Shown: positions 18,907-51,001, counted from the first letter of the stretch. The stretch is 64,000 nt of DNA from an uncultured Candidatus Saccharibacteria bacterium (GCA_964513515.1 CAZEMP010000002.1:82232-146231); one strand, 5' to 3'. Notes: a model not told the origin generated them from the letters alone. Program-made: numbers and translations.

Positions 18907-19051
18907 ACATATAAAATTTTACGTAATCAAAAAATCACCGAGAGGTGATTTTTTGATTGTGAGATTTTTGTTTTGGATTCTAACCCAAACTAAAAAACAA
19001 AGGAATGAATATATTCTAAATTAAAACCTCGGGTCCCACCTCGAGGTTTTA

Positions 19052-19237
19052 GAGGGTGAATCTGTCACAACTTAAAATTTTGTCGTCACAAAATTTTAGT
19101 CGCGACCCCGACTTATAGTTTTTATTTGCTAATAAAAACATATTCCGTCTTTCGATTCACCACGCAAGCAAAGTAGTTTGCTTGCTCTCCCCGCACAAAA
19201 TGAAAAATCACCCAACTTTGGGTGATTTTTCATTTTG
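19052..19237 (-). repeat. tRNA-3-prime-end-mimicking structured element downstream of tRNA-Gly(TCC) (family copy C)
   Basis: Read on the minus strand. Inverted partial copy of the tRNA 3-prime end (TGTGCGGGGA). GAGCAAGCAAACTACTTTGCTTGC hairpin. GGTGAATCGAAAGACGG (T-arm stem with complemented loop). AGTCGGGGTCGCGACT. AAAATTTTGT-GACG-ACAAAATTTT hairpin. Direct copy of GATTCACCCT, then terminator. Confidence 0.6.
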
Positions 19238-19308
19238 TGCGGGCAGGGTGAATCGAACACCCAACCACAGTTTGGAAAACTGTTGTTTTACCACTAAACT
19301 ATGCCCGC
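19238..19308 (-). tRNA. tRNA-Gly (anticodon TCC)
   Basis: Cloverleaf: acceptor GCGGGCA/TGCCCGC, anticodon loop TTTCCAA, T-loop TTCGATT. Confidence 0.85.
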
Positions 19309-20825: not shown

Positions 20826-20857
20826 AGATTAAAATTATATCAAATTGTTTATATTTT

Positions 20858-21008
20858 GTCGGGGCGTGAGTTTGGCGACTACATCGCCAGGTGCTTTTCT
20901 ATCTCATTTCACTATGTTCATTCAATAAAGAAAAGCCTTTCAAATCTCGGACACAAGCAAAGCAATTTGCTTGCTCGCTCCACGAAAAATACCTACTTCG
21001 TATATATT
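20858..21008 (-). repeat. tRNA-3-prime-end-mimicking structured element downstream of tRNA-Pro (family copy G)
   Basis: Read on the minus strand. GAGCAAGCAAATTGCTTTGCTTG hairpin. TCCGAGATTTGAAAGG (tRNA-Pro T-arm stem with complemented loop). GGCGATGTAGTCGCC hairpin. Direct copy CTCACGCCCCGACAAAATAT of the tRNA-Pro 3-prime end plus flank. Confidence 0.55.
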
Positions 21009-21079
21009 TGTCGGGGCGCCGAGATTTGAACTCGGACTGCATGCTCCCAAAGCACGTATGCTACCGTTACACCACGCCC
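21009..21079 (-). tRNA. tRNA-Pro (anticodon TGG)
   Basis: Acceptor CGGGGCG/CGCCCCG, anticodon loop TTTGGGA, T-loop TTCAAAT. Confidence 0.8.
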
Positions 21080-21162
21080 CGATATCGAAAAATGTTAACA
21101 CAAAAATTAAAAATTAGCGAGAAAATAAAACATTAAATAATTTTATAAATAATATTTTATTT

Positions 21163-26971: not shown

Positions 26972-27928
26972 TTAGTTTTTCTTATTATGAAAATTTTTAT
27001 GAATATCTCTCAGATGTTTGTCGGTAATATGTGTATATATCTGGGTTGTAGCTATATTTGCGTGACCAAGCATCGTTTGTACAGAGCGTAAGTCTGCACC
27101 ATTACTCAAAAGATCTGTAGCAAAAATGTGACGAAGTACGTGGGGAGTTACCTTTTTTGATATTCCAGATTTTGTAGCATAGAATTTAATTATTCTTTCT
27201 ACAGAGCGTGGAGTCAATGCATTAGATATTTCATTTTGTTTCGTATCGAGCTTTTTTATTGGTGAAGCAATTTGAACAAAAAGAGCGTCTGACATATCAT
27301 CTCTTTTATCTAAATACATTTTTAATGCTTCTTTTGCCTCATTTGAAATAAAAACCACTCGAACTTTTTCTCCTTTTCCTCTGATTGATAGTTCATCTAT
27401 TTTTAAATTAATATCTCTTGGTAGGGAACATAGCTCAGAAACACGTAGACCCGTGGAAAATAGAAGTTCTAAAATAGCCTTATCTCGCAAGCCTTTTAGA
27501 GTGCTAGTGCCTGGAGATTTTAAAATTTTATCCAAATCTTCTCGAGAAATAAGGTCTAAGGATCTCTCGCCAACTTTTGCGAGCTCTATTCTCTCTGGAG
27601 ACATCGTTTTTATACCAATTTTATTTGCAAATTTTAAATATGCTCGCAGAGCAATCAAATAATAGTTTTGAGTTCTTTTTTTTAAAGTCTCCGAACGGCC
27701 ATCTCTTTGATAAAGCTTTTTTCCATTATTTTGTTTAACGACCTGTCTATTTAAAAAGAGTCTGTACTCTCTAAACATATTATCAGTAATATCTTCTGGA
27801 TTTATATCCCTAGCAAATTCTATAAATTTATCTATATATCTATTGTAATTTACAACAGTCTTTATGCTTCGACCCCTTTCTATTTCTATATATTCAAGAA
27901 ATTGTCTTTTAAGTTCAGATAGTTTCAT
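26972..27928 (-). CDS. xerC: Tyrosine site-specific recombinase XerC/XerD family
   Basis: Catalytic region HVLRHIFATDLL...LGHANIATTQIYTHI with the conserved Tyr. Confidence 0.85.
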   Translation of the reverse strand: MKLSELKRQFLEYIEIERGRSIKTVVNYNRYIDKFIEFARDINPEDITDNMFREYRLFLNRQVVKQNNGKKLYQRDGRSETLKKRTQNYYLIALRAYLKFANKIGIKTMSPERIELAKVGERSLDLISREDLDKILKSPGTSTLKGLRDKAILELLFSTGLRVSELCSLPRDINLKIDELSIRGKGEKVRVVFISNEAKEALKMYLDKRDDMSDALFVQIASPIKKLDTKQNEISNALTPRSVERIIKFYATKSGISKKVTPHVLRHIFATDLLSNGADLRSVQTMLGHANIATTQIYTHITDKHLRDIHKNFHNKKN

Positions 27929-28002: not shown

Positions 28003-28272
28003 ATGGCCATGTTAACAAAGGCCAAAAAACAGAAAGTAATAAAAGAAGTAGCAATACATGCCACAGATACTGGTTCTCCAGAGGTTCAAATCGCTATGCT
28101 TTCTAAGAGAATTGATGAATTAACTAAGCATTTAAAGAAAAACGCTAAAGATAATCACTCAAGAAGAGGACTACTTGGAATGGTAGCCGACAGAAGAAGA
28201 CATTTGAAATACTTACAAAAGACTTCTGTGAAAAGATACGATGCGATAATGAAGACAGTGGGACTTAAGTAA
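28003..28272 (+). CDS. rpsO: 30S ribosomal protein S15
   Basis: GSPEVQIAMLS...HSRRGLL...RRRHLKYL signature. Confidence 0.95.
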   Translation: MAMLTKAKKQKVIKEVAIHATDTGSPEVQIAMLSKRIDELTKHLKKNAKDNHSRRGLLGMVADRRRHLKYLQKTSVKRYDAIMKTVGLK

Positions 28273-28394
28273 AACCAAAGAAAAAAACTGCTTCCATGCA
28301 GTTTTTTTCTTTGGTTTTAGATTCATGATTCAAGATTTACGATTCATGATATAATTCCGAATAGGTCGAATTAATAGAAATAATTTTAATATAT

Positions 28395-28916
28395 ATGTCA
28401 GTAATTAAACATAAGAGCCAAAGAGTTGGAATTTTTATAGATACACAAAATATTTATCATTCTGCAAAGAATTTATATGGTGCAAAAGTAAATTTTGGAC
28501 AAGTAGTAAAGGATGCTTTAGACGGAAGATTTTTGATAAGAGCAACAGCTTATGTGATAACAACAGAATCAGGAGATGAAAAGAATTTTTTTGAAGCTTT
28601 GAGTAAGGTTGGAATCACTACAAAAACAAAAAATTTACAGATTTTTGCCGGAGGTTCTAAAAAAGCAGATTGGGATGTGGCGATGGCAATAGATGCTATC
28701 TCACTTTCACCGAAGCTTGATGCGGTTATTCTAGTAACAGGGGATGGAGACTTTATTCCACTTGTAGAATATCTAAGAGTGACACAAGGATGTCAGGTGG
28801 AACTGGTATCTTTTGGTAAATCAACATCATCGAAACTTATTGAGGTTGTGGATGACTTTATGGATCTAGATAAGAATCCATATAAGTATATGATCGGGCA
28901 GGGGAAAAGAAGATAG
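28395..28916 (+). CDS. NYN-domain (LabA-like) protein
   Basis: VGIFIDTQNIYHS ... acidic residues VTGDGDF typical of NYN nucleases. Confidence 0.65.
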   Translation: MSVIKHKSQRVGIFIDTQNIYHSAKNLYGAKVNFGQVVKDALDGRFLIRATAYVITTESGDEKNFFEALSKVGITTKTKNLQIFAGGSKKADWDVAMAIDAISLSPKLDAVILVTGDGDFIPLVEYLRVTQGCQVELVSFGKSTSSKLIEVVDDFMDLDKNPYKYMIGQGKRR

Positions 28917-29042
28917 AAAAAAGTATAAGGGTCCAATATAAGTATAAGGAAAATCCATGATAAAAAAAGGCGGTTCGCATCGCGAACCGCCTTTTTGTAT
29001 CACAATAGACTTTTAGACTATAAAACTATAATATAGTTTTAT

Positions 29043-29786
29043 ATGATTTATTTTTATTACGGGACAGATACTGAATCTGCAAGAAAAAAGGCTAAAGTAA
29101 CTATTGATTCTTTAATTTTAAAAAGACCAGAGGTTACGCTTATTAAATTGGGAGATGAGGATTTATCTCTAGATAAAATAATAGAGCTTGCAGGTGGACA
29201 GGCACTTTTTTCTAATAAATATATCGTGTCTTTATATAAAACCTTTGATAATAAAGAAAATAAAGAATTAATTTTAAAAAATATAAAAGAGTTTGCTGGT
29301 TCAGACAACATTTTTATTTTTGCTGAGGGTAAAATGGATAAGGCAAGCATTGCAAAAATAGAAAAGAATGCAGAAAAAGTTCAAGAGTTTGTAAAACCAG
29401 ATAAAATTTTAAATAAAAAAGAAAAACTTGCACTTATTGGTGAAAAAATAGACTTTTTTGAATTTGCAGATGCCCTAGGCAGGAAAGATAAAAGGGGATT
29501 ATGGGTTTTGTACCAGGATGCTTTATCTGAACAAGTGCCTGCAGAGGAAGTGCATGGAATTTTTTTCTGGCAAGTAAAAAGTATGTTGCTTGCTAAGAAA
29601 TGTAAGACAGCAGAAGAGGCTAAAATGAAACCTTTTCCATTTCAAAAAGCGCAAGAATATTCTAGAAATTATAAAGATGGAGAACTTGAAAATTTATCTT
29701 CAAAACTTATTTCTATGTATCATGAGGCTCACAGAGGTAATGAAGATTTTTTCATAGCTTTAGAGAAATTTATATTGGAATTATAA
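29043..29786 (+). CDS. holA: DNA polymerase III delta subunit-like protein
   Basis: MIYFYYGTD start and overall helical clamp-loader delta architecture. Weak. Confidence 0.4.
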   Translation: MIYFYYGTDTESARKKAKVTIDSLILKRPEVTLIKLGDEDLSLDKIIELAGGQALFSNKYIVSLYKTFDNKENKELILKNIKEFAGSDNIFIFAEGKMDKASIAKIEKNAEKVQEFVKPDKILNKKEKLALIGEKIDFFEFADALGRKDKRGLWVLYQDALSEQVPAEEVHGIFFWQVKSMLLAKKCKTAEEAKMKPFPFQKAQEYSRNYKDGELENLSSKLISMYHEAHRGNEDFFIALEKFILEL

Positions 29787-29942
29787 AGGTTTAGTATAGA
29801 CTTTTCATCAATTTCTTGTTATCCCAGTACCATAACCGAGCTTATGTGCTCGGTTAGCTACGAGACTGCATAATTTAATTATGATTACATAATTAAATTA
29901 TTTGTATTTTTACTATATTTTTGCTAGATTTATCTGGTCTAT

Positions 29943-30015
29943 GCGCTTATAGCTCAGTCGGTAGAGCAGCTCCCTTTTAAGGAGACGGTCGTTGGTTCGA
30001 TTCCAACTAAGCGCA
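29943..30015 (+). tRNA. tRNA-Lys (anticodon TTT)
   Basis: Acceptor GCGCTTA/TAAGCGC, anticodon loop CTTTTAA, T-arm GTTGG-TTCGATT-CCAAC. Confidence 0.85.
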
Positions 30016-30080
30016 CAAAATAAAACCGCTAAGGCGGTGTTTTATTTTGTGGCTTAAGTGAGCCAACTGCTTGGCTCACG

Positions 30081-30498
30081 TGTTGGAATCGAACAGCGGA
30101 ATGATGTTTTGCAAGCTTGCAAAACGAATGAGCTGGTGCCCAGACAAAAGCGAGTGTTGACGAGCTTTTAGTCGAGGGAGATAAGCGAAGCGGTCCAACT
30201 AAGCGCACAGTGCAAACAATTGAAAATCACTCTTATATTTATGGAGTGATTTTCTTTTGCACTGTGCGAGACGGAGCGCGACGGCGCGAGTCGGGGTCGA
30301 GAGATTTTTCAGCAGAAAAATACTCGTGACCACACGAGTGTGCGCTTAGAATGAGCAAAAGTATTTGCTCATGTTTGGAATCGAAAGACGGAAGTCATTT
30401 TTATAGCAGTAAAAATGACTGAGTCGGGGTCGCAAGTTTTTGTGAGCGATGGCGAGCAAAAAACTAGTGACCGAAAGTGTACTCACGGTCCAACTAAG
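30081..30498 (+). repeat. Tandem array of three tRNA-Lys-3-prime-end-mimicking structured elements (copies A, A1, A2)
   Basis: Copy A (30081-30209) ends in a direct copy GGTCCAACTAAGCGCACA of the tRNA-Lys 3-prime end plus 2 nt of flank. Copy A1 (30210-30340) ends in the inverted copy GTGTGCGCTTAG. Copy A2 (30340-30498) ends in the direct copy GGTCCAACTAAG. Shared modules: TTGGAATCGAA(C/A)AG(C/A)CGG, GAGTCGGGGTCG, A4-T4 hairpins. Confidence 0.65.
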
Positions 30499-31465
30499 TA
30501 TTGAGTATCAATTACATATAGTATTTTTGCACTATGTTATAATTGGCGTATTACAAATTAACAAGAAACTTATGGAATTTGAAAAGCCAAAAGAATACAC
30601 CACAGATGAAATATCTGAATTAGAAAGAAAACGAACTATTTCTGAAGGGCAATTATTAGAAGAAGGGGCAGAGTATAAAGTTAATGATAAAGGTGAAAAA
30701 ATACTGATACCAACTAGAAAACAATATATTGGACTTCAAAAACTAACTGAAAAACAAGAACGTAATCTTCTTAGAGAGCTTCGGTCGGAAAAAACTATAG
30801 CCAAAGAACTGGGATTGGAATTTAGAGAAATTGCCCGCGATATTAGCGGAATCAATGAACACACTAAAGCATATATTGGTAAGCTGGAACCGGGTATTTT
30901 TGAAGCTATTCAGAAACATAATATTGGATATGTTCATTTCGGATTGGACACATGGACACCTTATCAAAATAATATTTTTGATTCATTTAACCAAAAAATA
31001 GACTGTGAGATCGGAGGAGAATCGATACAGGAAATCAAAAATCAGCTTAAATCAAAAAAAATCGCCACAAGTAAATTTTCAGAAAAAATGCTGGGAAGTG
31101 CAGATTTTAATACTCTAGAAAATGTGGAAAATATTGATTTGATCAGACTAACTCTCAGGGACCTTGGTCTTACGGAAGGGGTTTCGATAAACACAATCTA
31201 TCAGAAAGCAAAGGAATTGGGATTGGATCTTTGTCCTGCAGAGATCGGTCCACGCTATCCTTATGATGATGAGTATCGATATACCACTGATATCTACTAT
31301 ATTGCAATGGAGCCGATAGGCCCATATATTTTCTCGCTGAAGAATTCCGGAGGAAGAAAATTACAAGGAACTCTAGCGGGCAATCGATGGCCACTTAATT
31401 CAATATTTATTTTTCGTCTTCCTAAAATTACTAATTCTAAAGAAGTCACTACGACTCCTAATTAA
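30449..31465 (+). CDS. Hypothetical protein (probable true start at internal Met near 30573)
   Basis: The ORF 5-prime end overlaps the tRNA-linked repeat. A more plausible start is MEFEKPKEY. No recognisable domain. Confidence 0.4.
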   Translation: MASKKLVTESVLTVQLSIEYQLHIVFLHYVIIGVLQINKKLMEFEKPKEYTTDEISELERKRTISEGQLLEEGAEYKVNDKGEKILIPTRKQYIGLQKLTEKQERNLLRELRSEKTIAKELGLEFREIARDISGINEHTKAYIGKLEPGIFEAIQKHNIGYVHFGLDTWTPYQNNIFDSFNQKIDCEIGGESIQEIKNQLKSKKIATSKFSEKMLGSADFNTLENVENIDLIRLTLRDLGLTEGVSINTIYQKAKELGLDLCPAEIGPRYPYDDEYRYTTDIYYIAMEPIGPYIFSLKNSGGRKLQGTLAGNRWPLNSIFIFRLPKITNSKEVTTTPN

Positions 31466-31528
31466 TTTCTTTGTAGTATAAAAAATAAACCCCTTGCATA
31501 AGCTTGCTTATGCAAGGGGTTGTTTTGG

Positions 31529-31954
31529 TTAGCGATGAAGAATCACTGTGCGCGGATCTTCATTCCCGCGACGATCCATAAGATTCTTCGCTTCACTATA
31601 CCAGAATGACCATCCATCTTTGGCATCTTTAAACCACCCAGCTCCACCCTCCCTACATTTTGAATAGTCGTGATAGGTGAGGTATGGATAAATACTAGGT
31701 TCGTGAGAACATTTCCAACTAGTTCCTTGGAACATTAGGTACATACCTTGCCATTCCTTCGGAATCAGATCCTGATGTTGTAGTAGATACAAGGCATGTT
31801 TCCAACCAAGCTTGTATTCCCCAAGTACGCAGTGATCAAAGCTCCTTCCGATATTAGGAACGAACGGTTTCCCATCGAACGGAGTATCTTCAGCAAGTTT
31901 CCAGTAGTGAAATAATATGTGCAATCTGAGCGGTGTATTTTTTATTCCGTTCAT
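31529..31954 (-). CDS. Hypothetical protein (moderately GC-rich, probably acquired)
   Basis: 141 aa, Trp/His-rich. GC is clearly higher than that of the flanks. Confidence 0.4.
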   Translation of the reverse strand: MNGIKNTPLRLHILFHYWKLAEDTPFDGKPFVPNIGRSFDHCVLGEYKLGWKHALYLLQHQDLIPKEWQGMYLMFQGTSWKCSHEPSIYPYLTYHDYSKCREGGAGWFKDAKDGWSFWYSEAKNLMDRRGNEDPRTVILHR

Positions 31955-32046
31955 GTTTCCCTCTTATATTTTAAAGTTAAAGAATTCCCCCTACACAAGC
32001 AAGCCTGTGTAGGGGGATAAAGAGATATAGCTCAGGGATGGATGTT

Positions 32047-32550
32047 TTAATGAGAATCAAACTCCTTAACTTTAGCCATATACTCTTTCACCAACACCTT
32101 CATTTCGTCAGCAGTTAATAAATTAACTTTTATTCCCTCAGCTTCGATTAAGGCACCCAATATTCGGGCCTTTTCTATGTGCTTGCAATCGACAGTAATT
32201 TGGACCCTTTTATAATGTTCGTTTGTGCGATAATTATCGGCGTAACCAATCCAAATCTCCAGTATTGGACCACCTTTACCAGAGATAAGGTAATCATCTG
32301 GAGAGCTGCCCGAAATGAGACCCTTCAAACCACCTCTCATACCCCTAGCTTCAATGTCAGATGTGCCAAAACCATACTCTTGGACAAATGTACTATAAGC
32401 TAACACCAACCTTTCCTTTACCATTACTTCGCTTTTACAAGTAAATGCAGAGGGATGATTAAAGATTCCAACGATTACCCTCACAAATTTCTTGTATCCA
32501 GCGACAGAAGCATTGACCTTATCTGACTGGTTTTTTTTCTGGTTTTCCAT
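32047..32550 (-). CDS. Hypothetical protein (moderately GC-rich)
   Basis: 167 aa. Followed by a strong hairpin CCCCCTACACAAGCAAGCCTGTGTAGGGGG. Confidence 0.4.
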   Translation of the reverse strand: MENQKKNQSDKVNASVAGYKKFVRVIVGIFNHPSAFTCKSEVMVKERLVLAYSTFVQEYGFGTSDIEARGMRGGLKGLISGSSPDDYLISGKGGPILEIWIGYADNYRTNEHYKRVQITVDCKHIEKARILGALIEAEGIKVNLLTADEMKVLVKEYMAKVKEFDSH

Positions 32551-33332
32551 TTCTATTCTCCTTTATATTTAGTTGTCAAAGAACTTTCGTTCTTTTTACC
32601 GCCGACTCATTTAGTCGGTGTAATCGTTCCGGCCTGGTAATATGATATATCAAGTATATTGACTACGTATTATTTTCATTGTATTTATGTAATGAAGTAA
32701 GATTAAAAGCCAAATAACTCATATACATGGCTACTATTTACTGAAAATAAGTGTAATTTATAGTTACAAATATAATTATATTTGTTGTTACTCGAGTAAT
32801 TAATGTTATATTGTATAATTAATTTACAAATTATATTTCTTCTTAGTGTAAGATAAAATTACAATGATTATTGTAATTTTATCTTACGTATAAACTAGAT
32901 TAGTTTTATTATATAAAACATAAAATTTAAGCATTATTTAAAAAAGTTTACTAAACTAATTAAATATGTAATTAATTATTACATGTTTATTTGCTGAAAT
33001 AAGCCATACAAATATGGCACTTTGATCATTAGCTGTATTTATATTACAAATAAACAATATAAATCAAGCAGCATCAAACTATTTCATGTATGCTATCACA
33101 GGACAGAAAATGAATCTCAGATTGGTAGACTGAGAAAAAATAAGTTCTTTTACACGAAGATTATAGGGTGATATTCAAGAAGTTACTAACCTCCAGCCAT
33201 GCCCCAAGCTGCTAAATAAAAATGAAAAAGCAGCAAGTTAATACAAGGAGTTAAATTGGTGCGGTGGCTACTTAGCCTTACTAGTGGAATCAAGCAGTAT
33301 CCACTAGAAGGCTGCGTCTTACGGAGGCAAGT

Positions 33333-33662
33333 ATGGCTTGCTATCATGCTACATCCGGCTGGGATAAGTTCGAGGTATTCGTTAAATGCCTCGAGACCTT
33401 GGGTGTAAGCTACACTCAAGAGGAATTACTGGAGGGGTGCTCAAGAGGCTCCCCTGGAAATCCAGAGTTCCAACCCTTCCGGAAAGCAACCTTCACAACC
33501 ATCTCACTGGGCAGTAAAAAGCCTATTGAGATGGTAGCGGAGGAGTATCTCGGGGTCAACGCGCTCAGTGCGACTGATGGTAGTCAAATTGAGTTCGAGG
33601 TCTACAAGAAAGGGCATCGGCCCGATCTTGAATCGAGAACAAAAGTTCTCGAGCCCTGGTAG
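33333..33662 (+). CDS. Hypothetical protein in small GC-rich island
   Basis: 109 aa. The island 33190-33700 is about 50% GC against about one-third GC in the flanks. Terminator AAAAGACGGCTCTAACAAGAGCCGTCTTT follows. Confidence 0.4.
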   Translation: MACYHATSGWDKFEVFVKCLETLGVSYTQEELLEGCSRGSPGNPEFQPFRKATFTTISLGSKKPIEMVAEEYLGVNALSATDGSQIEFEVYKKGHRPDLESRTKVLEPW

Positions 33663-33820
33663 ATACAAAAGACGGCTCTAACAAGAGCCGTCTTTCTTTT
33701 TTAAAAACAACACATGAATAATAAAATATTTATTTAATTGGATAAATATATAAACTATTATTAAGTTTTAATTAATGATAAAATAAAAATGCTTAGTGAT
33801 TATTAAATTAAAAAATTAAT

Positions 33821-34561
33821 ATGAATACCGAAAATAACTTTTCTCAGAAAGAAAAAGCCCAATTACAAACTGAGCGCACTTTAAGTGATGCAGAATTAAT
33901 TGGGAAAGGTGCACAGTATGTTTCTAGCAAGGACGGGGATATGTCTTTCGATATTACTGACAAGCAATATGAAGAACTTCATCAACAGATGGAGGAACTA
34001 TTGGTGAAAAATGTACTAACAGATGAAAATATTAAAGAAGGACGCATTAAGATTAATGTTGAAAAAGTACTAGATAATAAAAAGACGGATGATCAAAAAA
34101 TTGGTTATGAATTTGAAATTGAAACTGAAACCCGTTACATCATTTCCCCATGTAAAATAGAGGATTATAAATGGGAAAATCACGTTACGGATACTTACGA
34201 TCAATCTGGTCGTGCAAGAATTCGTATTAAAAATGGCAAACCCAGACTTTCTCTTAAAGTGCCTCTTTTCACAAAAGACACACTGACCGCTAAAACATGT
34301 TTACGTCTTGAATTTAAGCCAGATAATGAAAAACAAGAGATGGACTTAATTGGTATAAAGGAATTAATTCTTAAAGAAGCAGGTGCTCAAACATCAGAAA
34401 AATGGGGCGCAGCTCTTAAGATGAAAAATGGCTTAAAAACATGGATAAATCGTGACAGTAATAATAATTGGTGGATTGAGTTAGATGAGGGCGTAGAATT
34501 TGTACCGCCAGAGAATATTGAAGTTTTGAGAACCGAGAAAAGTACCATAAAAACGAAATGA
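33821..34561 (+). CDS. Hypothetical protein
   Basis: 246 aa, charged and Lys-rich. No motif. Confidence 0.4.
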   Translation: MNTENNFSQKEKAQLQTERTLSDAELIGKGAQYVSSKDGDMSFDITDKQYEELHQQMEELLVKNVLTDENIKEGRIKINVEKVLDNKKTDDQKIGYEFEIETETRYIISPCKIEDYKWENHVTDTYDQSGRARIRIKNGKPRLSLKVPLFTKDTLTAKTCLRLEFKPDNEKQEMDLIGIKELILKEAGAQTSEKWGAALKMKNGLKTWINRDSNNNWWIELDEGVEFVPPENIEVLRTEKSTIKTK

Positions 34562-35124
34562 AGAAACCAACCCCATTTTTTAGTAGACAAATTGATGATG
34601 CTATTATTTTTGCAGCAAAAGCACATAAAGATCAATTTCGTAAAACTGACTTATCTATCCCTTATGTTTCTCACCCAATTGGTGTGGGGCTTATTCTTCA
34701 TAAGGCTGGGTTTTCTGACGATGTCATAATTGCAGGTATTCTTCATGATGTTGTGGAAGATTGCGATGTAACAATTAACGAAATACGCAGTACTTTTGGT
34801 AATGAAATCGCATTTTTAATAGAAAAAGTTTCAGAAAACAAAGAACTTTCATGGTTAAAAAGAAAAGAAGAATATCTTCAAGTTGTTTTGAATGCACCTA
34901 TAGAAGTGAAAGCTATTGTAGTAGCGGATAAATTACACAATATTCAATCTATAATAAAAGCTTTAGAAAATAAGGAAGATATTTGGAAATTTTTTAATAA
35001 AGATAAGAAAGCGGTAATAGAAAATTATATAAATTTTGTAAAAAACATAACACAAAAATGGGATCACCCACTCCTTACAGAACTGGAAGTAGCAACTAGG
35101 CACTTGAAAAAAATAACAGGGTAA
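34558..35124 (+). CDS. HD-domain phosphohydrolase
   Basis: HD motif SHPIGVGLILH...GILHDVVED. Confidence 0.7.
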   Translation: MKKPTPFFSRQIDDAIIFAAKAHKDQFRKTDLSIPYVSHPIGVGLILHKAGFSDDVIIAGILHDVVEDCDVTINEIRSTFGNEIAFLIEKVSENKELSWLKRKEEYLQVVLNAPIEVKAIVVADKLHNIQSIIKALENKEDIWKFFNKDKKAVIENYINFVKNITQKWDHPLLTELEVATRHLKKITG

Positions 35125-35247
35125 ACACAAATATTTTCTTATTTAAAGTATATTTTTACCTATACTTTAATAGAAAAGATAAATTTTATAGCTAGAGTAT
35201 TTTTAGCATTTTATGAATAGTTGTATGAATGATACATACCTTTCTTT

Positions 35248-35976
35248 TTAGATTTTTCTATAGAGTGTTTGGAATATTTGTTTTTGAAATTCAGCTATTC
35301 TTTTACTCTCAATTATCATACAAGTCTCAGAATTGTAGTCTATAAAAGCTATTTTGTCTCCATATATTATTTCTGTAACGTTATGTTCGAACGGGCCAAA
35401 ATCACCAGGCATTGTCTTAGCAAATCTATCCAGGCTAGGTTTTTTGTGCTGAGCAGTTTGAATATTTGTTATAACCTCTCTTTGAAGTTTCTTTTCATCT
35501 CTCATTTTTCTATAAATCCTCGGAACATATTTATCTTTCTTTTCATTACCATCTTTGTTTGAACTAAATCTATAGAATACGTCATTCTTTTTAAGGCTCC
35601 TGACTACATCGTCAAATATTCTTTTTGTACCATCCCTACCCTCAAGGAATCTTATTTTAGGTTTTTTTTCACTAGTGGAATAAGCATCTTCTAAGTCTGG
35701 TAATATTTCAAAAAAATTTATTTTTAAATCATCAAATAATGTTTCTAATCTGTTTGGTGGTTCTGCCCCGTAAACAACATTTTTTAGTTTTTGTGTTTGG
35801 GTAATAAGTTTTTTTTCTAATAAGGAGGGTAAGGCTTTATACACCAATGGTCTGTGTATTGATGTCTTCTCAGATATTTGGGAAATATTTGATGTACCCA
35901 TCTCAAGAAGAGCCAAATAAATAGCACTTTCATTTTTTGTTAGCCCCAATTTCTCTAAAATATTGTTTTTATCCAT
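35248..35976 (-). CDS. TrmB-family transcriptional regulator (paralog 1)
   Basis: N-terminal wHTH LGLTKNESAIYLALLEMGTSNISQISEKTSIHRPLVYKALPSLLEKKLI. Paralogous to the ORFs at 44286-45029 and 57085-57831. Confidence 0.65.
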   Translation of the reverse strand: MDKNNILEKLGLTKNESAIYLALLEMGTSNISQISEKTSIHRPLVYKALPSLLEKKLITQTQKLKNVVYGAEPPNRLETLFDDLKINFFEILPDLEDAYSTSEKKPKIRFLEGRDGTKRIFDDVVRSLKKNDVFYRFSSNKDGNEKKDKYVPRIYRKMRDEKKLQREVITNIQTAQHKKPSLDRFAKTMPGDFGPFEHNVTEIIYGDKIAFIDYNSETCMIIESKRIAEFQKQIFQTLYRKI

Positions 35977-36270
35977 AATTTATTTAAATTATTGTAATTT
36001 TGTCTTACATAAATAATAAATCATTAATCTAAAAAATGCAATTAAAATAAGCATTTATTCGATCAATTCAGATAATATAAGCAAATCTGTAATAAATAAT
36101 TACGTATTATATTAGCAGGTAACAGCTATAAATATGGACTGTTTAGCTTTTATCTTTATTTGATTACATAAAGACAATAAAAACCAGGCAGTGTCAATAT
36201 AATTAATATATAATGTTCCAGGGTAAAAGATAGAACATTGAAACAAAAATAAACTAGAGAGGGGTGAAAC

Positions 36271-36528
36271 ATGGGGCGGTGCATAAGAATGGCTCAACTT
36301 GTGGTAAGGCGAAGACGTGAGATATCTCTTGATGAAGCAAAATCTCGAGGAGCTAGTCTTGGTAACGGAGTAAAATTACCAAGAACGGTAGCTGAGCTTG
36401 AGAAAAGAAAGCAAAGACACTTTCTACGACTCGAGAGAGCTGGGCTTCAAGTAACTCCTGCGAGCTATGGGATGCTCGCAGTTTGGCAAAGTACTCCACT
36501 CGAACTTAGTCTCATCTGGAGTGGTTGA
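36271..36528 (+). CDS. Hypothetical small basic protein (GC-rich island 1)
   Basis: 85 aa, Arg-rich, about 50% GC. Lies directly upstream of a hammerhead ribozyme. Confidence 0.4.
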   Translation: MGRCIRMAQLVVRRRREISLDEAKSRGASLGNGVKLPRTVAELEKRKQRHFLRLERAGLQVTPASYGMLAVWQSTPLELSLIWSG

Positions 36529-36567
36529 TAAAAGGCCAAGCAGTTTGGGGATCTGCATAAAATCCCC

Positions 36568-36616
36568 TCTGTCTCGCGATGAATCGCGACTGACGAGCTC
36601 AAAAGAGCGAAACAGA
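36568..36616 (+). ncRNA. Type-III hammerhead self-cleaving ribozyme (HHR1)
   Basis: tctgtC | TCGCGAtgaaTCGCGA CTGACGAG CTCaaaaGAG CGAA acaga. The core CUGANGA...GAA is present. Stems I and II are closed and stem III is open. The cleavage site is GUC. Confidence 0.8.
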
Positions 36617-36659
36617 AAGTTCTTTGACAACAAAATATAGGATAATGGAGGATTAAACT

Positions 36660-37277
36660 ATGCATATTCTAGTCATCGAAGACACTGAGAAGCACCTGAA
36701 TGACGCGCGGAAGTACAGCAAAAAGTTGGTTGGTTGTAAGGTGGACTTTGTTACCACACTAACTGAGGCAATGGAACTTCTGAAGAAGAACAAATATGAC
36801 GGAGCCATCTCCGATGTGTTTTTTCCCGCAGAGAAAGGGGCTTCAGCAGAGACGTTCGAGAATGCAATCATTGTCAGCGCCAAGCTGTTTGGGATGGGTG
36901 TGCACCACGTCTTCAACACGACAGGCAACCATCACGGTAGCAAGTACCAAGGGTTTGTCTGGAAGACCCCGAAGAAGTTGAACCACATCGAGGACTCTGA
37001 GGATAGTTGTGGGTACGACTTCAGAATGACTGGGATGATCATCGAGGCGTACCCGAAGGACCCAGAAGGGGACAAGGACACGAAGCAGTGGCAAGCAGCA
37101 TTCCGGTACATCCTGCTCGTGCAAGCTCTACTCCAACTTCCCGATAAGGGCGAGAGGATCATCAAAGATGCTAAGTTGCACGGCTTCCCTTACGGGGAGT
37201 ATGGTTACCTCACCGAGGATTTCGCGAAGTGCTCGCATTCCTTCGTCGCCGAGATCTTCCAGAAGTATAATGCCTGA
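36660..37277 (+). CDS. CheY-like receiver-domain protein of unknown output (GC-rich island 1)
   Basis: MHILVIEDTEKHL...DGAISDVFFP resembles a response-regulator receiver with an acidic pocket. The C-terminal 100 aa are unrecognised. About 52% GC. Confidence 0.45.
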   Translation: MHILVIEDTEKHLNDARKYSKKLVGCKVDFVTTLTEAMELLKKNKYDGAISDVFFPAEKGASAETFENAIIVSAKLFGMGVHHVFNTTGNHHGSKYQGFVWKTPKKLNHIEDSEDSCGYDFRMTGMIIEAYPKDPEGDKDTKQWQAAFRYILLVQALLQLPDKGERIIKDAKLHGFPYGEYGYLTEDFAKCSHSFVAEIFQKYNA

Positions 37278-37311
37278 ATCCGTCTTGTACCTCCGCCACC
37301 AAACGTAAAAT

Positions 37312-37370
37312 GAGTTGATGAGACTGGAGCGGAGTGTTTTCCAGGAGGAAAAACACTCCGCTCCAGAACA
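37312..37370 (+). terminator. Rho-independent terminator closing GC island 1
   Basis: GAGACTGGAGCGGAGTGTTTTCC...GGAAAAACACTCCGCTCCAG, a long perfect hairpin. Confidence 0.6.
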
Positions 37371-37406
37371 TCACAAGTCATCTCACAAAGAGATGGCTTT
37401 TTTATT

Positions 37407-37450
37407 TGTGCGTTTAGAGTGAGCAAAAGTATACTCACGGCTCTAACGTA
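37407..37450 (+). repeat. Solo fragment of the tRNA-end-mimicking element (copy F)
   Basis: TGTGCGTTTAG-AGTGAGCAAAAGTATACTCACGG-CTCTAACG parallels the A1/A2 junction GTGTGCGCTTAG-AATGAGCAAAAGTATTTGCTCAT and ...GTGTACTCACGGTCCAACTAAG. Confidence 0.4.
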
Positions 37451-37540
37451 TTTATTCTTGACCACATATAAATTTATATTTGATATAATACTAATTAAGA
37501 TTATTATGGTGGATATTATCAAATATTAATATAGAATTGA

Positions 37541-38056
37541 ATGATAAAACAAGCCTTAAATAGAATATTAATTATCGGAGACTCTGGTCGGGGTAAAACT
37601 GTTTTGGCTAGAAAAATTTCCGAAAAACTTGGTATACCAGCATATTCAACCGATGATTATCTTTACGAGATGAAATTCACAGTATATAAAGATCGGCAAA
37701 AAGGTATTAATGAGATTACAAATATTTACCAAAATAATAAGTGGATTGTAGAGGGAACAACTCATTATTTACTTAAACCCGGGTTAGATCTAGCAGATGT
37801 AATAATATATTTAAAATATGACAATATTTTTTATCAATGGCTAACAATTATTAAAAGATTTTTGAAAAGAAAGGATAAAAGTTTTCTAAGAATGATCTGG
37901 CTAATATGGCACGTTCTATACAAAAGACTTCAAACAAAAAATAGTAGATTAAAAAAAGGACAAATGACCACATCAGAACGTATAGATCCATATAAACATA
38001 AGGTAATCACACTCAATTCTTTTAAGGAAATAGATGATTTCATAGATACTATTTAA
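37541..38056 (+). CDS. P-loop NTPase, adenylate-kinase/topology-modulation-protein-like
   Basis: Walker A IIGDSGRGKTVLARKI. 171 aa. Confidence 0.5.
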   Translation: MIKQALNRILIIGDSGRGKTVLARKISEKLGIPAYSTDDYLYEMKFTVYKDRQKGINEITNIYQNNKWIVEGTTHYLLKPGLDLADVIIYLKYDNIFYQWLTIIKRFLKRKDKSFLRMIWLIWHVLYKRLQTKNSRLKKGQMTTSERIDPYKHKVITLNSFKEIDDFIDTI

Positions 38057-38150
38057 TTAAAAAACTATAATTTTTAATTTTCTATTGTTTATTTGACATA
38101 AGTTACTACATGTGAGATAATCCCATCCAGATTCTGGAAACGGAGGTGGT

Positions 38151-38756
38151 GTGAGAAAGTTCTTAATCAGGAATGTCGCAGGTCTTGTCGGAGTGACTTG
38201 GCTATCAGTAGGGTTTTGGTCTATGGCCAACATTCCGACTGACAAGCCAAAACCAGACGAGTCTAAGCCAAGCATCACGGTGAAGCCGTTGGTCTTACCC
38301 TTCAAGTCAAAGTCAGACTTGAAGGATGGATTAGCACAGGAGGTAAGACCAACAGTTTCAGTAAGCGATCTGAATTACTCCGTGATGGGGGATAATGAGA
38401 GAAGGCTGAGGGCCTTTTTCAAGGATAACCCTATCATGGTGAAGGTGGCGTACTGCGAGTCAAAGTTCATCCACCGAAACAAGGATGGGAGTATCTTGCG
38501 AGGGGAGAAGGATCCTTATGACATAGGCATCATGCAGATCAATACTAGGACCAAGAACGGACACAGGAAAAAATCCTTGGGACTAGGACTTGATATATGG
38601 ACTATGGAAGGCAGCATGGCCTATGCCAAAATCCTCAGCAGAGAAAGGGGACTTGGTGAAAACAAGGACGAGGACGGAGTCCTTTTTTACTGGAGGAGTT
38701 CCTCTGGATGTTGGGGGCCACACCGGGATAACCCAGGAGGTGTGAGTAGCAGGTGA
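38151..38756 (+). CDS. Secreted lytic transglycosylase (SLT domain) in a GC-rich islet
   Basis: Signal peptide. Catalytic AYCESKF (E-S) and the YDIGIMQIN motif of family-1 lytic transglycosylases. About 48% GC with a GGAGGTG RBS. Confidence 0.65.
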   Translation: MRKFLIRNVAGLVGVTWLSVGFWSMANIPTDKPKPDESKPSITVKPLVLPFKSKSDLKDGLAQEVRPTVSVSDLNYSVMGDNERRLRAFFKDNPIMVKVAYCESKFIHRNKDGSILRGEKDPYDIGIMQINTRTKNGHRKKSLGLGLDIWTMEGSMAYAKILSRERGLGENKDEDGVLFYWRSSSGCWGPHRDNPGGVSSR

Positions 38757-38801
38757 TTCTTTATGAGAGGGTCACCTGCTATTTCTTTTATTAAATTTAT
38801 A

Positions 38802-39209
38802 TTAAAGAGGTAAATCAAAAGCAAAGGCTCCTGCTCCAAGAAATACTAATGAAAGTGAAATAGCAAATACTAATATATAAAAAGCGAGATCTCTTTTTTC
38901 AAGATTTGGTTCTCTGTATTCTAGTATTGCTTCACAGAAGAAAAGCGCAGCAAACACCATTCCAGCGAGTTGAGTATAAGCTCCAGCAAGAAGTATCAGT
39001 CCGCCTATTATTTCAATAAAAGCTAGTATTTTTACAAAAGTAGCAGCGGGGTGAATATTTATTGTTTCAAAAAGTTCCTGCCAAGATCTTTGTTCATCAC
39101 CAATTTTTAATGATCCAAGATTTATCACAATGATTCCTAACACCACTCTTAAAATAAGGGGAGATAGCATACTAAAAGTTAATAAACTAGGAAATGTATT
39201 TAATATCAT
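38802..39209 (-). CDS. DoxX-family membrane protein
   Basis: Four transmembrane helices with a DoxX-like pattern. 135 aa. Confidence 0.55.
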   Translation of the reverse strand: MILNTFPSLLTFSMLSPLILRVVLGIIVINLGSLKIGDEQRSWQELFETINIHPAATFVKILAFIEIIGGLILLAGAYTQLAGMVFAALFFCEAILEYREPNLEKRDLAFYILVFAISLSLVFLGAGAFAFDLPL

Positions 39210-50724: not shown

Positions 50725-50811
50725 GGAAGAGTGGCTGAGTGGTTTAAAGCACCGGTCTTGAAAACCGGAGGGCTCGAAAGGGTCCCGTGAGTTCGAATCT
50801 CACCTCTTCCG
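50725..50811 (+). tRNA. tRNA-Ser (anticodon TGA)
   Basis: Acceptor GGAAGAG/CTCTTCC, anticodon loop CTTGAAA, long variable arm, T-arm GTGAG-TTCGAAT-CTCAC. Confidence 0.85.
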
Positions 50812-50868
50812 CATTATCAAAAAACATCGATTTGTATCGGTGTTTTTTTGATAAATATTTGGCAGATT

Positions 50869-51001
50869 TGGAGATTCGAACGGCGGAGCACACGAAGCGA
50901 AGCGGAGTCTGTTGCAAGCTTGCAACAGGTGCGAGCCGGTGCCCAGACAAAACTTTTTGACGAAAAAGTTTTAGTCGCGGGCGAATCTCACCTCTTCCGC
51001 A
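50869..51001 (+). repeat. tRNA-3-prime-end-mimicking structured element downstream of tRNA-Ser (copy B)
   Basis: GGAGATTCGAACGGCGG (T-arm stem with complemented loop) ... TTGCAAGCTTGCAA ... GGTGCCCAGACAAAA ... AAAACTTTTT-GACG-AAAAAGTTTT hairpin ... TTTTAGTCGCGGGCG ... direct copy GAATCTCACCTCTTCCGCA of the tRNA-Ser 3-prime end plus flank. Collinear with copy A. Confidence 0.65.

Follow-up and report, generated by a model that had tools for sequence, protein, structure and literature searches.

Structured repeats behind the tRNA genes of a Saccharibacteria genome: a family tied to Patescibacteria, tentatively read as small mobile elements that duplicate the tRNA 3' end

What is the material that follows the tRNA-Lys(ttt) gene of an uncultured Candidatus Saccharibacteria bacterium, in which the end of the tRNA is written several times over before a run of orphan genes begins? 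The DNA analyzed here, called the window, comprises 64,000 nt, with positions counted from its start. In the interval 30017-30500, an original prediction had seen the 3' end of tRNA-Lys recopied in direct, inverted, and again direct orientation. These copies were found: a direct 16-nt copy, TCCAACTAAGCGCACA, at 30194-30209 (an exact match to 30002-30017), an inverted 11-nt copy, TGTGCGCTTAG, at 30339-30349, and a direct 13-nt copy, CGGTCCAACTAAG, at 30486-30498. The proposal that they are decayed attachment (att) scars did not hold, as they belong instead to a conserved, structured family of about 90-160 nt, with no integrase inside or beside the units. The interval is a tandem array of three members of this family (units A, B, and C), which is uncatalogued and tied to tRNA genes of Patescibacteria (Parcubacteria/Paceibacteria lineages). 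The parts of the array are as follows.

29943-30016, plus strand: tRNA-Lys(ttt) (ARAGORN; Rfam tRNA model, 72.5 bits)
30014-30051, plus strand: hp1, a terminator-like hairpin (inverted repeat, terminator scan; -17.2 kcal/mol)
30048-30210, plus strand: unit A, with a variant core (covariance model R1, 25.0 bits, E 3.8e-6; repeats; fold), made up of an antisense acceptor 3' strand (30048-30058), the hairpin hp2 (30058-30079; 9 bp, CUGC loop), an antisense T arm (30082-30094), a three-way-junction core (30078-30189), and a sense copy of the tRNA end (30194-30209)
30204-30268, plus strand: second terminator-like hairpin (inverted repeats; -34.8 kcal/mol)
30254-30340, plus strand: unit B (R1, 57.4 bits, E 2.6e-17)
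30339-30500, plus strand: unit C, the full form (R1, 67.5 bits, E 8.2e-21 for the core; repeats; fold), made up of an antisense acceptor strand (30339-30349), hp2 (30351-30372), an antisense T arm (30375-30385), the core (30370-30481), a mini-hairpin module (30473-30487), and the truncated sense copy CGGTCCAACTAAG (30486-30498)

The segment copied downstream is the 3' part of tRNA-Lys (29998-30016), from T-loop position C56 to the discriminator plus a C. None of the eight tRNA genes in the window encodes CCA; in seven, the discriminator is followed by C and then A, and in tRNA-Ser by C and then ATT. Wherever an element is present, the trailer CAAAAT/CAAAGT opens its first hairpin. Two inverted copies of the T arm had been overlooked: GTTGGAATCGAAC at 30082-30094, which is complementary to 29995-30007 at 13 of 13 positions, and TTGGAATCGAA at 30375-30385. 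The GC content of 30017-30500 is 46-48%, compared to about 30% for the genome, and the interval folds far more stably than its shuffles on either strand, with the plus-strand fold being the more stable (-241.9 versus -210 kcal/mol; z = -11.5). The inner GC stem of hp1 (30025-30038) is followed by a U run, and the stem can be extended into the acceptor 3' strand of the tRNA; the second hairpin begins in the CGCACA end of the tRNA-end copy of unit A, as hp1 does in the real tRNA end. Unit B is a short form lacking T-arm flanks, with UGUG/CACA as its closing stem.

When aligned by eye, the copies share a core that reads AGACGGA, a variable hairpin, GAGTCGGGGTCG, an AT-rich hairpin, and GTGACC. 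An alignment of 68 copies yielded a consensus structure of 25 pairs, a three-way junction whose core holds the invariant elements GAAAGACGGA / GAGUCGGGGU / GUGACC. In helix P1, the antisense segment pairs with the sense copy, and A-N-U-Y-G covaries with the T-loop sequence C-R-N-U-U; GAAA lies between P1 and P2, and GG between P2 and P3. P2 contains an invariant GAC/GUC, an internal loop GGA/GA, and a variable hairpin, and P3 consists of GGUC...GACC plus a variable hairpin. Unit A shares a variant core with the copy behind tRNA-Ser, described below, in which P2 carries GGC/GCC or AGC/GCU. Compensatory changes were observed at 17 of the 25 predicted pairs. The proportion of paired cells was 93.4%, compared to 71.7% in column shuffles and 33-49% when the partners were slid, and double-change cells numbered 409 against 130 expected. 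At one position of P3, G.U occurs in 22 sequences and A.C in one. Because G.U outnumbers A.C, the folding strand is the tRNA-sense strand.

Several further features can be set beside this consensus. The hairpin hp2 is a 9-bp stem between the two antisense segments, usually topped by AAA-CUGC-UUU and followed by CGU. Of the copies inspected by eye, very roughly one in four to one in three have it; in the window, it lies at 30058-30079, 30351-30372, 19165-19184, and 20954-20973. The sequence of its stem varies and its shape is constant, and CAAGCAAACUGCUUUGCUUG recurs across different tRNAs and species. At least two further core types with the same flank architecture occur in loci L143 and L151 (with tRNA-Gly- and tRNA-Lys-like ends) and in the second units of L012 and L127. 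The core type found with tRNA-Pro reads GAAAGAC, a hairpin, and ACCUGGCUAUGUAGUAGCC, and another reads GCCUGUUUGAG...CAAACAGGGUACUGUUCCUGUAAGGAAC; the family is thus a superfamily of modules. Compared to the covariance model, a sequence-only nhmmer profile had lower sensitivity, and the variant cores escaped it. Hammerhead, kink-turn, integron attC R-box, and permuted transfer-messenger RNA (tmRNA) readings of the core were also considered by eye, and none appeared to fit. The invariant junction and the precise boundary between core and C56 would be compatible with a self-cleaving ribozyme of a new class, without being evidence for one.

The array is not the only occurrence in the window. Elements of shared architecture stand on the trailers of five of the eight tRNA genes, about 1.3 kb in total, and follow one layout: the tRNA, the terminator-like hp1, often an antisense acceptor 3' strand, often hp2, an antisense T stem and T loop, the core, and a sense copy. 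Model R1 detected seven core copies, all with E <= 1e-4, core-motif counts were far above those in shuffles, and membership of the family in this window is seven to eight. Only plain terminators follow the remaining three tRNAs (Arg-tcg, Gly-gcc, and Arg-gcg). Outside the array, the members are these.

19048-19239, minus strand: copy after tRNA-Gly(tcc) (19237-19308, minus; R1, 71.5 bits, E 3.6e-22), with hp1 (19194-19239), hp2 (19165-19184), the antisense T arm GGTGAATCGAA (19151-19161), the core (19054-19166), the sense copy GATTCACCCT (19053-19062), and a separate terminator (19023-19050)
20853-20982, minus strand: element after tRNA-Pro(tgg) (21010-21081, minus), with the flank architecture kept and a different core, comprising hp2 (20954-20973), an antisense T arm (20939-20950), the core (20871-20938), and a sense copy of the acceptor end (20853-20866)
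50813-51000, plus strand: copy after tRNA-Ser(tga) (50725-50812) with a unit-A-like core (R1, 42.8 bits, E 2.7e-12), comprising hp1 (50816-50852), an antisense T arm (50871-50881; GAGATTCGAAC), the core (50865-50991), and an 18-nt exact sense copy, GAATCTCACCTCTTCCGC (50983-51000)
55779-55913, plus strand: unit-B-like copy after tRNA-Arg(tct) (55706-55778; R1, 36.1 bits for 55823-55913), a hairpin followed by a degenerate core (AGTCGAGGTTG)
63284-63379, plus strand: degenerate orphan core with no tRNA upstream (R1, 20.9 bits, E 1e-4)

Beyond the window, the exact pattern A-N-T-Y-GAAAGACGGA, 2-32 nt, R-AGTCGGGGT was scanned over 185,579 species-representative genomes and matched at least 116 loci, compared to about two expected by chance according to our own estimate. 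Among the matches listed, all named organisms are Patescibacteria except for one Flavobacterium-binned contig; the lineages in that set are Nomura-, Kaiser-, Wolfe-, Yonath-, Taylor-, Lloyd-, Adler-, and Zambryskibacteria, with Paceibacterota, Minisyncoccia, and Parcubacteria group as further labels. The lone match outside Patescibacteria (L094, JAYVIN010000027.1) comes from a contig of 2,058 bp that was most likely assigned to its Flavobacterium bin in error and would not be a genuine occurrence. A same-strand tRNA end was located less than 160 nt upstream in 73 of the 95 matches with enough upstream sequence (mode 60 nt), and some of the matches lacking a tRNA fall at the edges of the 8-kb stored stretches. 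Thirty anticodons are represented among the tRNAs preceding the listed copies. The element is always downstream of the tRNA, the genes 3' of it being unrelated housekeeping genes in either orientation, and the neighbors of the 116 loci are likewise housekeeping genes (TypA, RbfA, L19, RluD, RmuC, MiaA, ClpB, HU, and Ddl). A riboswitch was rejected on this ground, as its place would be the 5' leader of a regulated gene set. When Rfam 15 was run over the whole window, only the eight tRNAs reached the gathering thresholds; nothing credible was found in 30017-30500 even at E values up to 10, and likewise there was no match in 29800-33900. ARAGORN made no tRNA or tmRNA call within the units, to which the Rfam tRNA and tmRNA models were likewise blind. 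No description of the element was found in the literature searched; the group I introns of Patescibacteria tRNAs are unrelated.

The flanks of the core match the local tRNA. The longest exact match to the last 26 nt of the tRNA had a median of 11.5 nt for the antisense segment and 12 nt (mode 19) for the sense copy, compared to 5-6 nt for both when a non-cognate tRNA was used. In 57 of 70 loci, the sense copy begins at T-loop C56, a position supplied by the final C of GUGACC. Exact sense copies of 18-25 nt starting from C56 are present in 22 of the 70 GTDB loci; the commonest long copies measure 19 nt and reach about the annotated tRNA end (discriminator plus one C). Many others are cut off after 5-8 nt, and the short unit-B form has no sense copy. 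The 19-nt duplication from C56 to the end that flanks the units, truncated in many copies, is far above the usual target-site duplication of miniature inverted-repeat transposable elements (MITEs). There is no consistent CCA at the ends of the sense copies, so that the copy is gene-like, and an origin from mature tRNA was rejected.

The antisense segment (5-19 nt) is the Watson-Crick complement of the T loop, the T stem, and sometimes the acceptor strand. We dropped a model in which the closing stem derives its 5' strand by direct copying from the T-stem 5' strand, as would result if positions 49-74 had been duplicated and the T loop had received the core; at informative positions of this strand, 16 follow the complement of the tRNA 3' strand and two do not. 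Where the sense copy diverges, often through being cut short after 5-8 nt, the antisense segment still pairs with the tRNA version (49 versus six positions). Full units, such as A, C, and the copy behind tRNA-Gly, can form an acceptor-like stem that runs on into a T-stem-like helix in the predicted fold. Both acceptor strands were present in five copies, the antisense strand alone in nine, the sense strand alone in 33, and neither in 23. Given this lack of co-occurrence, the acceptor-like stem is not a maintained feature, and its interpretation as a selected tRNA mimic was dropped; the same counts fit a sense copy that arose as a by-product of insertion and does not serve as a stem partner.

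With the holA protein as query, a metagenome scan recovered 80 related loci with 40-87% identity. The order holA, tRNA-Lys(ttt) is widely conserved among them, and the sequence after the tRNA is variable. A synteny comparison did not reveal one identical organization; close relatives differ in how many units they carry and of which type, in keeping with the turnover that the original prediction had proposed. The following arrangements were found after tRNA-Lys.

No unit: L119 (87% holA identity), L131, L132, L156
Core of the tRNA-Pro type with a 19-nt exact copy, plus a B-like unit: L133, L137
A-like unit plus others: L161
Deletion chimera of A and B: L140
Left part alone, ending at GTTGGAATCGAAC: L127
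Up to four units: L155 (73% holA identity)

The relatives with no unit, another core, the chimera, the left part alone, or the A-like unit have 76-87% holA identity. A second locus, tRNA-Gly(tcc)/HU, is empty in L142, L170, L134, and L157 and filled in L143, L158-L160, L164, and L127. In the empty L170, a terminator immediately follows the tRNA; the filled L143 has a similar one downstream of the sense copy. Since the L170-type terminator is displaced downstream in L143, hp1 arrives with the element. The left part and core are near-identical in L003, behind tRNA-Lys(ctt), and in L012, behind tRNA-Arg(tct), in different species.

The same loci also show larger rearrangements. tRNA-Lys(ttt) is inverted relative to holA in 19 of 51 relatives examined (those listed being L140, L145, L153, L154, L165, L168, L172, L174-L178, L187-L191, and L195), and in L153 the real tRNA is found where the antisense segment would normally lie, beside an inverted fragment of a B-type unit. 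This suggests that the inversions pass through the sense and antisense copies of the tRNA end. In L121, L124, and L127, unrelated AT-rich DNA starts immediately 3' of the antisense T arm GTTGGAATCGAAC, and the T-arm mimic of the element appears to be a breakpoint or secondary attachment site. The S15 and NYN genes upstream of holA (28003-29786 in the window) are absent from this position even in relatives with 83-87% identical holA, and in L018 holA is beside homologues of window genes at 14.7-20.4 kb. The gene order of this lineage is highly rearranged around tRNA loci.

Close relatives thus differ at the same tRNA: units may be there or missing, exchanged, truncated, or multiplied. Each unit is located directly 3' of a tRNA gene end or of a tRNA-end copy left by the previous unit, bringing its own terminator-like hairpin. 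We considered, tentatively and at a little short of an even chance, that the units of about 90-160 nt may be small, non-autonomous mobile elements that duplicate the tRNA 3' end. An enzyme encoded elsewhere would read the T arm and the tRNA end and insert the unit with a duplication from C56 to the end; because insertion would duplicate this stretch, the target would be regenerated each time and arrays could build. The folded top strand, as RNA or single-stranded DNA, with its invariant junction would be the part recognized by the machinery. The short antisense segment would pair with the T-loop copy and close the fold, and may later lengthen through hairpin-templated mutation, which could account for the antisense-flank data. 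The array would mark the place where the 8.8-kb variable island that follows it entered, and may itself be that point of entry. Degenerate and orphan copies, judged from their sequence, would also count toward mobility or dispensability.

Several observations weigh against this reading. The mobilizing enzyme is purely hypothetical, as no mobile-element gene was found near the loci and viral contigs gave no matches: clustering of neighboring open reading frames (ORFs) up to 3.5 kb around the 116 loci revealed no recurrent transposase, integrase, reverse transcriptase, or Cas1, and the exact pattern had zero matches in IMG/VR viral contigs. For Cas1, the result refers to the largest neighbor clusters of the 116 loci, where it was absent, and no Cas1-profile scan was made of the neighbors. 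To our knowledge, a 19-nt target duplication lying inside a tRNA has no close precedent. The persistent complementarity of the antisense segment to the tRNA is not predicted by a simple insertion model. The preference for G.U over A.C is only modest overall (54 versus 31) and fits RNA or single-stranded DNA. Copies inside one genome are well diverged, with no recent burst visible. Junction nucleotides that are invariant over more than 100 species while the stems compensate would fit a selected host RNA equally well.

This last point leads to the main rival, which we regard as possible, on the unlikely side: a host non-coding read-through RNA, tRNA-linked or tRNA-mimicking, whose antisense segment would find its partner in the sense copy or in the 3' half of the cognate tRNA, whose junction would bind a protein or ligand or be catalytic, and whose role would be in tRNA maturation, quality control, or another tRNA-related process. 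Besides the invariant junction nucleotides and the strong compensatory covariation over many lineages, the G.U preference at one helix position (22 against one), the constant tRNA sense of the element, the shape of hp2 (9 bp, 4-nt loop) kept while its stem sequence varies, and the antisense segment that stays complementary to the tRNA all speak for such an RNA. The predicted minimum-energy fold of the read-through transcript also pairs the antisense segment with the tRNA 3' half, and full units are predicted to fold as an acceptor-like stem, a hairpin, and an extended T stem. However, the element is missing at the same tRNA in close relatives and at three of the eight window tRNAs, and where present it sits behind a terminator-like hairpin with a U run. 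The acceptor-like stem is inconsistent, many sense copies being truncated after 5-8 nt, the units are not recognized by ARAGORN or by the Rfam tRNA and tmRNA models, and the genes downstream are unrelated housekeeping genes in either orientation.

In a further reading, which we consider rather unlikely, the junction plays an active part. The conserved junction would then be an active RNA, either catalytic or the handle of a ribonucleoprotein, whose 5-19-nt antisense segment pairs with the T loop and 3' strand of one specific tRNA (gene or transcript) and which copies or joins itself to the 3' fragment of that tRNA or controls its maturation. If true, Patescibacteria, with their reduced genomes, would harbor either RNA-guided mobile elements of a new class that target tRNAs or a cis-regulatory RNA dedicated to individual tRNAs.

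Less probable still is a guide-plus-scaffold module or a decoy attachment site. As a guide, the unit would direct a recombinase to the tRNA end; as a decoy, it would mimic the T arm and 3' end, so that islands or integrases destined for tRNA-Lys land in the unit. The guide RNAs of known elements, such as the omega RNAs of TnpB and the bridge RNAs of IS110, consist of a scaffold followed by a target-matching segment, and the scaffold and target-matching 3' segment seen here resemble that layout. Unrelated DNA starting right after the antisense T arm in L121, L124, and L127, the island of the window starting right after the truncated sense copy at 30498, and the flipped tRNA-Lys of 19 among 51 relatives examined would suit either version. 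Nevertheless, no associated nuclease or recombinase gene was found among the neighbors of the 116 loci, the integrases at tRNA-Lys in L131 and L142 occur where units are missing, and the sense and antisense segments, which correspond to one and the same stretch of the target, are mostly paired with each other.

The interpretation of the repeats as decayed attL/attR scars of successive tyrosine-recombinase elements is now very unlikely. An identity block from the T loop to the 3' end is typical of T-loop-targeting integrases, and direct repeats of this tRNA segment are present; the downstream island is variable, and integrases do occur at this tRNA in some relatives. However, the material between the repeats is a conserved, covarying fold of 90-110 nt common to 30 anticodons, the antisense copies are left unexplained, no integrase is located inside any unit or recurs nearby, the upstream recombinase is XerC/D/A-like and separated by three housekeeping genes, and the island has no closing repeat. 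The att-scar model is largely refuted by the conservation of the core across the family. That there is no element, the repeats being chance palindromes or terminator hairpins grown by template switching near highly transcribed tRNA genes, is scarcely credible and refuted as a full explanation by an invariant core found at least 116 times against about two expected and by covariation in two variable hairpins, although hairpin-templated extension could explain the variable length and exact complementarity of the antisense segments and may still account for these flanks.

The DNA downstream of the array is described next. At least 25 relatives carry holA, tRNA-Lys, a gap of 0.15-4 kb, DoxX on the minus strand, the SpoU methylase, and murE. 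In the window, this gap measures 8.8 kb, the DoxX-SpoU-murE block starting at 38802, and the island begins directly after the truncated sense copy of unit C. Its features and the recombinase upstream are given here.

26972-27928, minus strand: Xer-type tyrosine recombinase (XerC/D/A-like score)
30499-38800: variable island, from unit C to the conserved DoxX-SpoU-murE block (homologue comparison, GC mosaic)
30572-31465, plus strand: ORF
31488-31521: terminator-like hairpin (terminator scan, as for the two below)
31529-31954, minus strand: ORF
31986-32017, minus strand: terminator-like hairpin
32047-32550, minus strand: ORF
33333-33662, plus strand: ORF
33668-33695: terminator-like hairpin
33821-34561: ORF
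34558-35124: ORF with an HD domain
35248-35976, minus strand: TrmB-like ORF
36660-37277: receiver-like ORF
37541-38056: P-loop ORF
38151-38756: ORF

The island had been placed in a stretch of 3.2 kb ending at about 33.7 kb; it extends much further, to about 38.8 kb. Within the shorter stretch, the AT-rich ORF, the two minus-strand ORFs, and the GC-rich islet with its own terminator are as described, and the view that the cargo has no recognizable function was borne out, since the ORFs at 30572-31465, 31529-31954, 32047-32550, and 33333-33662 had no Pfam, NCBIfam, or significant PHROG match. Three of these four were compared with PDB sequences, with no match. For the first, four distant and weak relatives were found among 5.8 billion proteins, and the context of one (L199) was uninformative. 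Across the island, five of ten ORFs have no family match and the other five have generic domains (HD, TrmB, weak receiver, P-loop/topology-modulation-like) or a marginal PHROG match only. The ten ORFs, when tested, had no homologue in any of the 80 related loci, where DoxX, SpoU, and murE do have them. ORFs 30572-31465 and 31529-31954 converge on the hairpin at 31488-31521, a bidirectional terminator with a perfect stem of 15 bp. Further GC-rich islets are located at about 36150-37400, with ORF 36660-37277, and at about 38100-38900, with ORF 38151-38756. The spacer does not carry ATATGGCTA, the motif that had been assigned to it; it contains ACATGGCTA at 32725, and an exact copy is found at 32073-32081 on the minus strand, inside an ORF. 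In the window as a whole, this motif is at most marginally enriched (30 matches versus 17 +/- 4.7 expected; two of 100 shuffles reached 30).

No closing, attR-like copy of the tRNA-Lys 3' end was found elsewhere in the window at up to three mismatches. A tyrosine recombinase is indeed located about 2 kb upstream, as had been noted; its part in the history of the locus fared less well, since it scores as XerC/D/A-like and S15, a NYN-domain gene, and holA separate it from tRNA-Lys. In two relatives, a tyrosine recombinase 27% identical to the Xer-like protein of the window directly follows tRNA-Lys (L131, 2902-3759; L142, 6991-7848); these loci have no small elements at tRNA-Lys, and the island there is of the classical integrase type. 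The description of the locus as a hotspot stands, given the variable gap in at least 25 relatives and the integrases in L131 and L142. The original observation is therefore partly confirmed and its interpretation partly supported. The units would explain why tRNA loci are hotspots of rearrangement and island formation in these genomes, as seen in the tRNA-Lys inversions of roughly one third of relatives and in the island junctions that coincide with unit boundaries.

Patescibacteria, whose genomes are very small, account for a large part of bacterial diversity; even so, five of the eight tRNA genes in the window carry units. A covariance model would annotate a GC-rich feature now read as orphan intergenic DNA, att scars, or spurious ORFs. 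If the units are mobile, they would target tRNA genes without a linked integrase and duplicate exactly the stretch from the T loop to the end, and the search for their enzyme would be a well-posed task for phylogenetic profiling. If they are functional RNAs, each would be a per-tRNA accessory RNA of a kind not known to us.

Comparison with known systems gave partial likenesses. tRNA-like RNAs, such as the tRNA domain of tmRNA, viral structures, YrlA, and the t-elements of plant mitochondria, resemble full units in having an acceptor-like and a T-stem-like helix and a tRNA-like end. In the units, however, five additional base pairs and a three-way junction stand in place of the T loop, most copies lack the acceptor-like stem, and the stems copy the tRNA next to them. 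The omega RNAs of TnpB and IscB, the bridge RNAs of IS110, and the guides of IS200/IS605 share with the units a structured scaffold joined to a short segment matching the flank, and a target choice that would be encoded by base pairing (A-N-U-Y-G with C-R-N-U-U). The units differ from them in having no adjacent TnpB, IscB, IS110, or TnpA, and the matching segment duplicates upstream sequence and is not a unique flank.

The integrated layout of the CTX type comprises a target copy, a body, an inverted target copy, a spacer, and a target copy. The units share this layout, with a spacer of about 90-110 nt, with the folded single-strand sites to which the CTX attP hairpin used by XerCD and attC belong; such sites are strand-specific and tolerate G.T, and it is the layout and the strand asymmetry alone that are visible here. 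In contrast to CTX and attC, the body is a hairpin of about 40 nt, the spacer is highly conserved, and the target would be the T arm of a tRNA and not dif or attI; membership is not claimed. MITEs, and the repetitive extragenic palindromes and bacterial interspersed mosaic elements (REP/BIME), are similarly small, non-coding, multi-copy, hairpin-rich, and non-autonomous, with presence/absence differences. In the units, however, the terminal pairing segments match the local target and are not conserved between copies; the units occur strictly at tRNA 3' ends, have a junction core and not a simple palindrome, and no partner transposase, RAYT, or insertion sequence was found.

tRNA-targeting integrative elements, with their T-loop tyrosine integrases, also insert at a tRNA and leave the gene intact, and their repeated use of one tRNA yields arrays beside a variable island. 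The units are distinguished from them by a length of 90-160 nt, the lack of an integrase or cargo, the antisense copy of the target, the three-way junction, and a single core at 30 anticodons. Casposons show a 15-bp duplication overlapping tRNA-Pro by 5 bp, and their minimal target includes a T-loop segment (PMC5137440). The long target duplication at a tRNA 3' end and the involvement of the T-psi-C region are shared with the units (PMC5137440), and a ruler-like definition of cut sites would fit the precise boundaries at C56 and the tRNA end. Casposons, unlike the units, are kilobase-sized, with terminal inverted repeats and with Cas1 and PolB; in the units, the duplication is wholly inside the tRNA, no inverted ends were seen by eye, and no Cas1 was seen nearby. 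Without claiming membership, we would regard the casposon as the nearest known case of a long duplication at a tRNA end that depends on the T loop.

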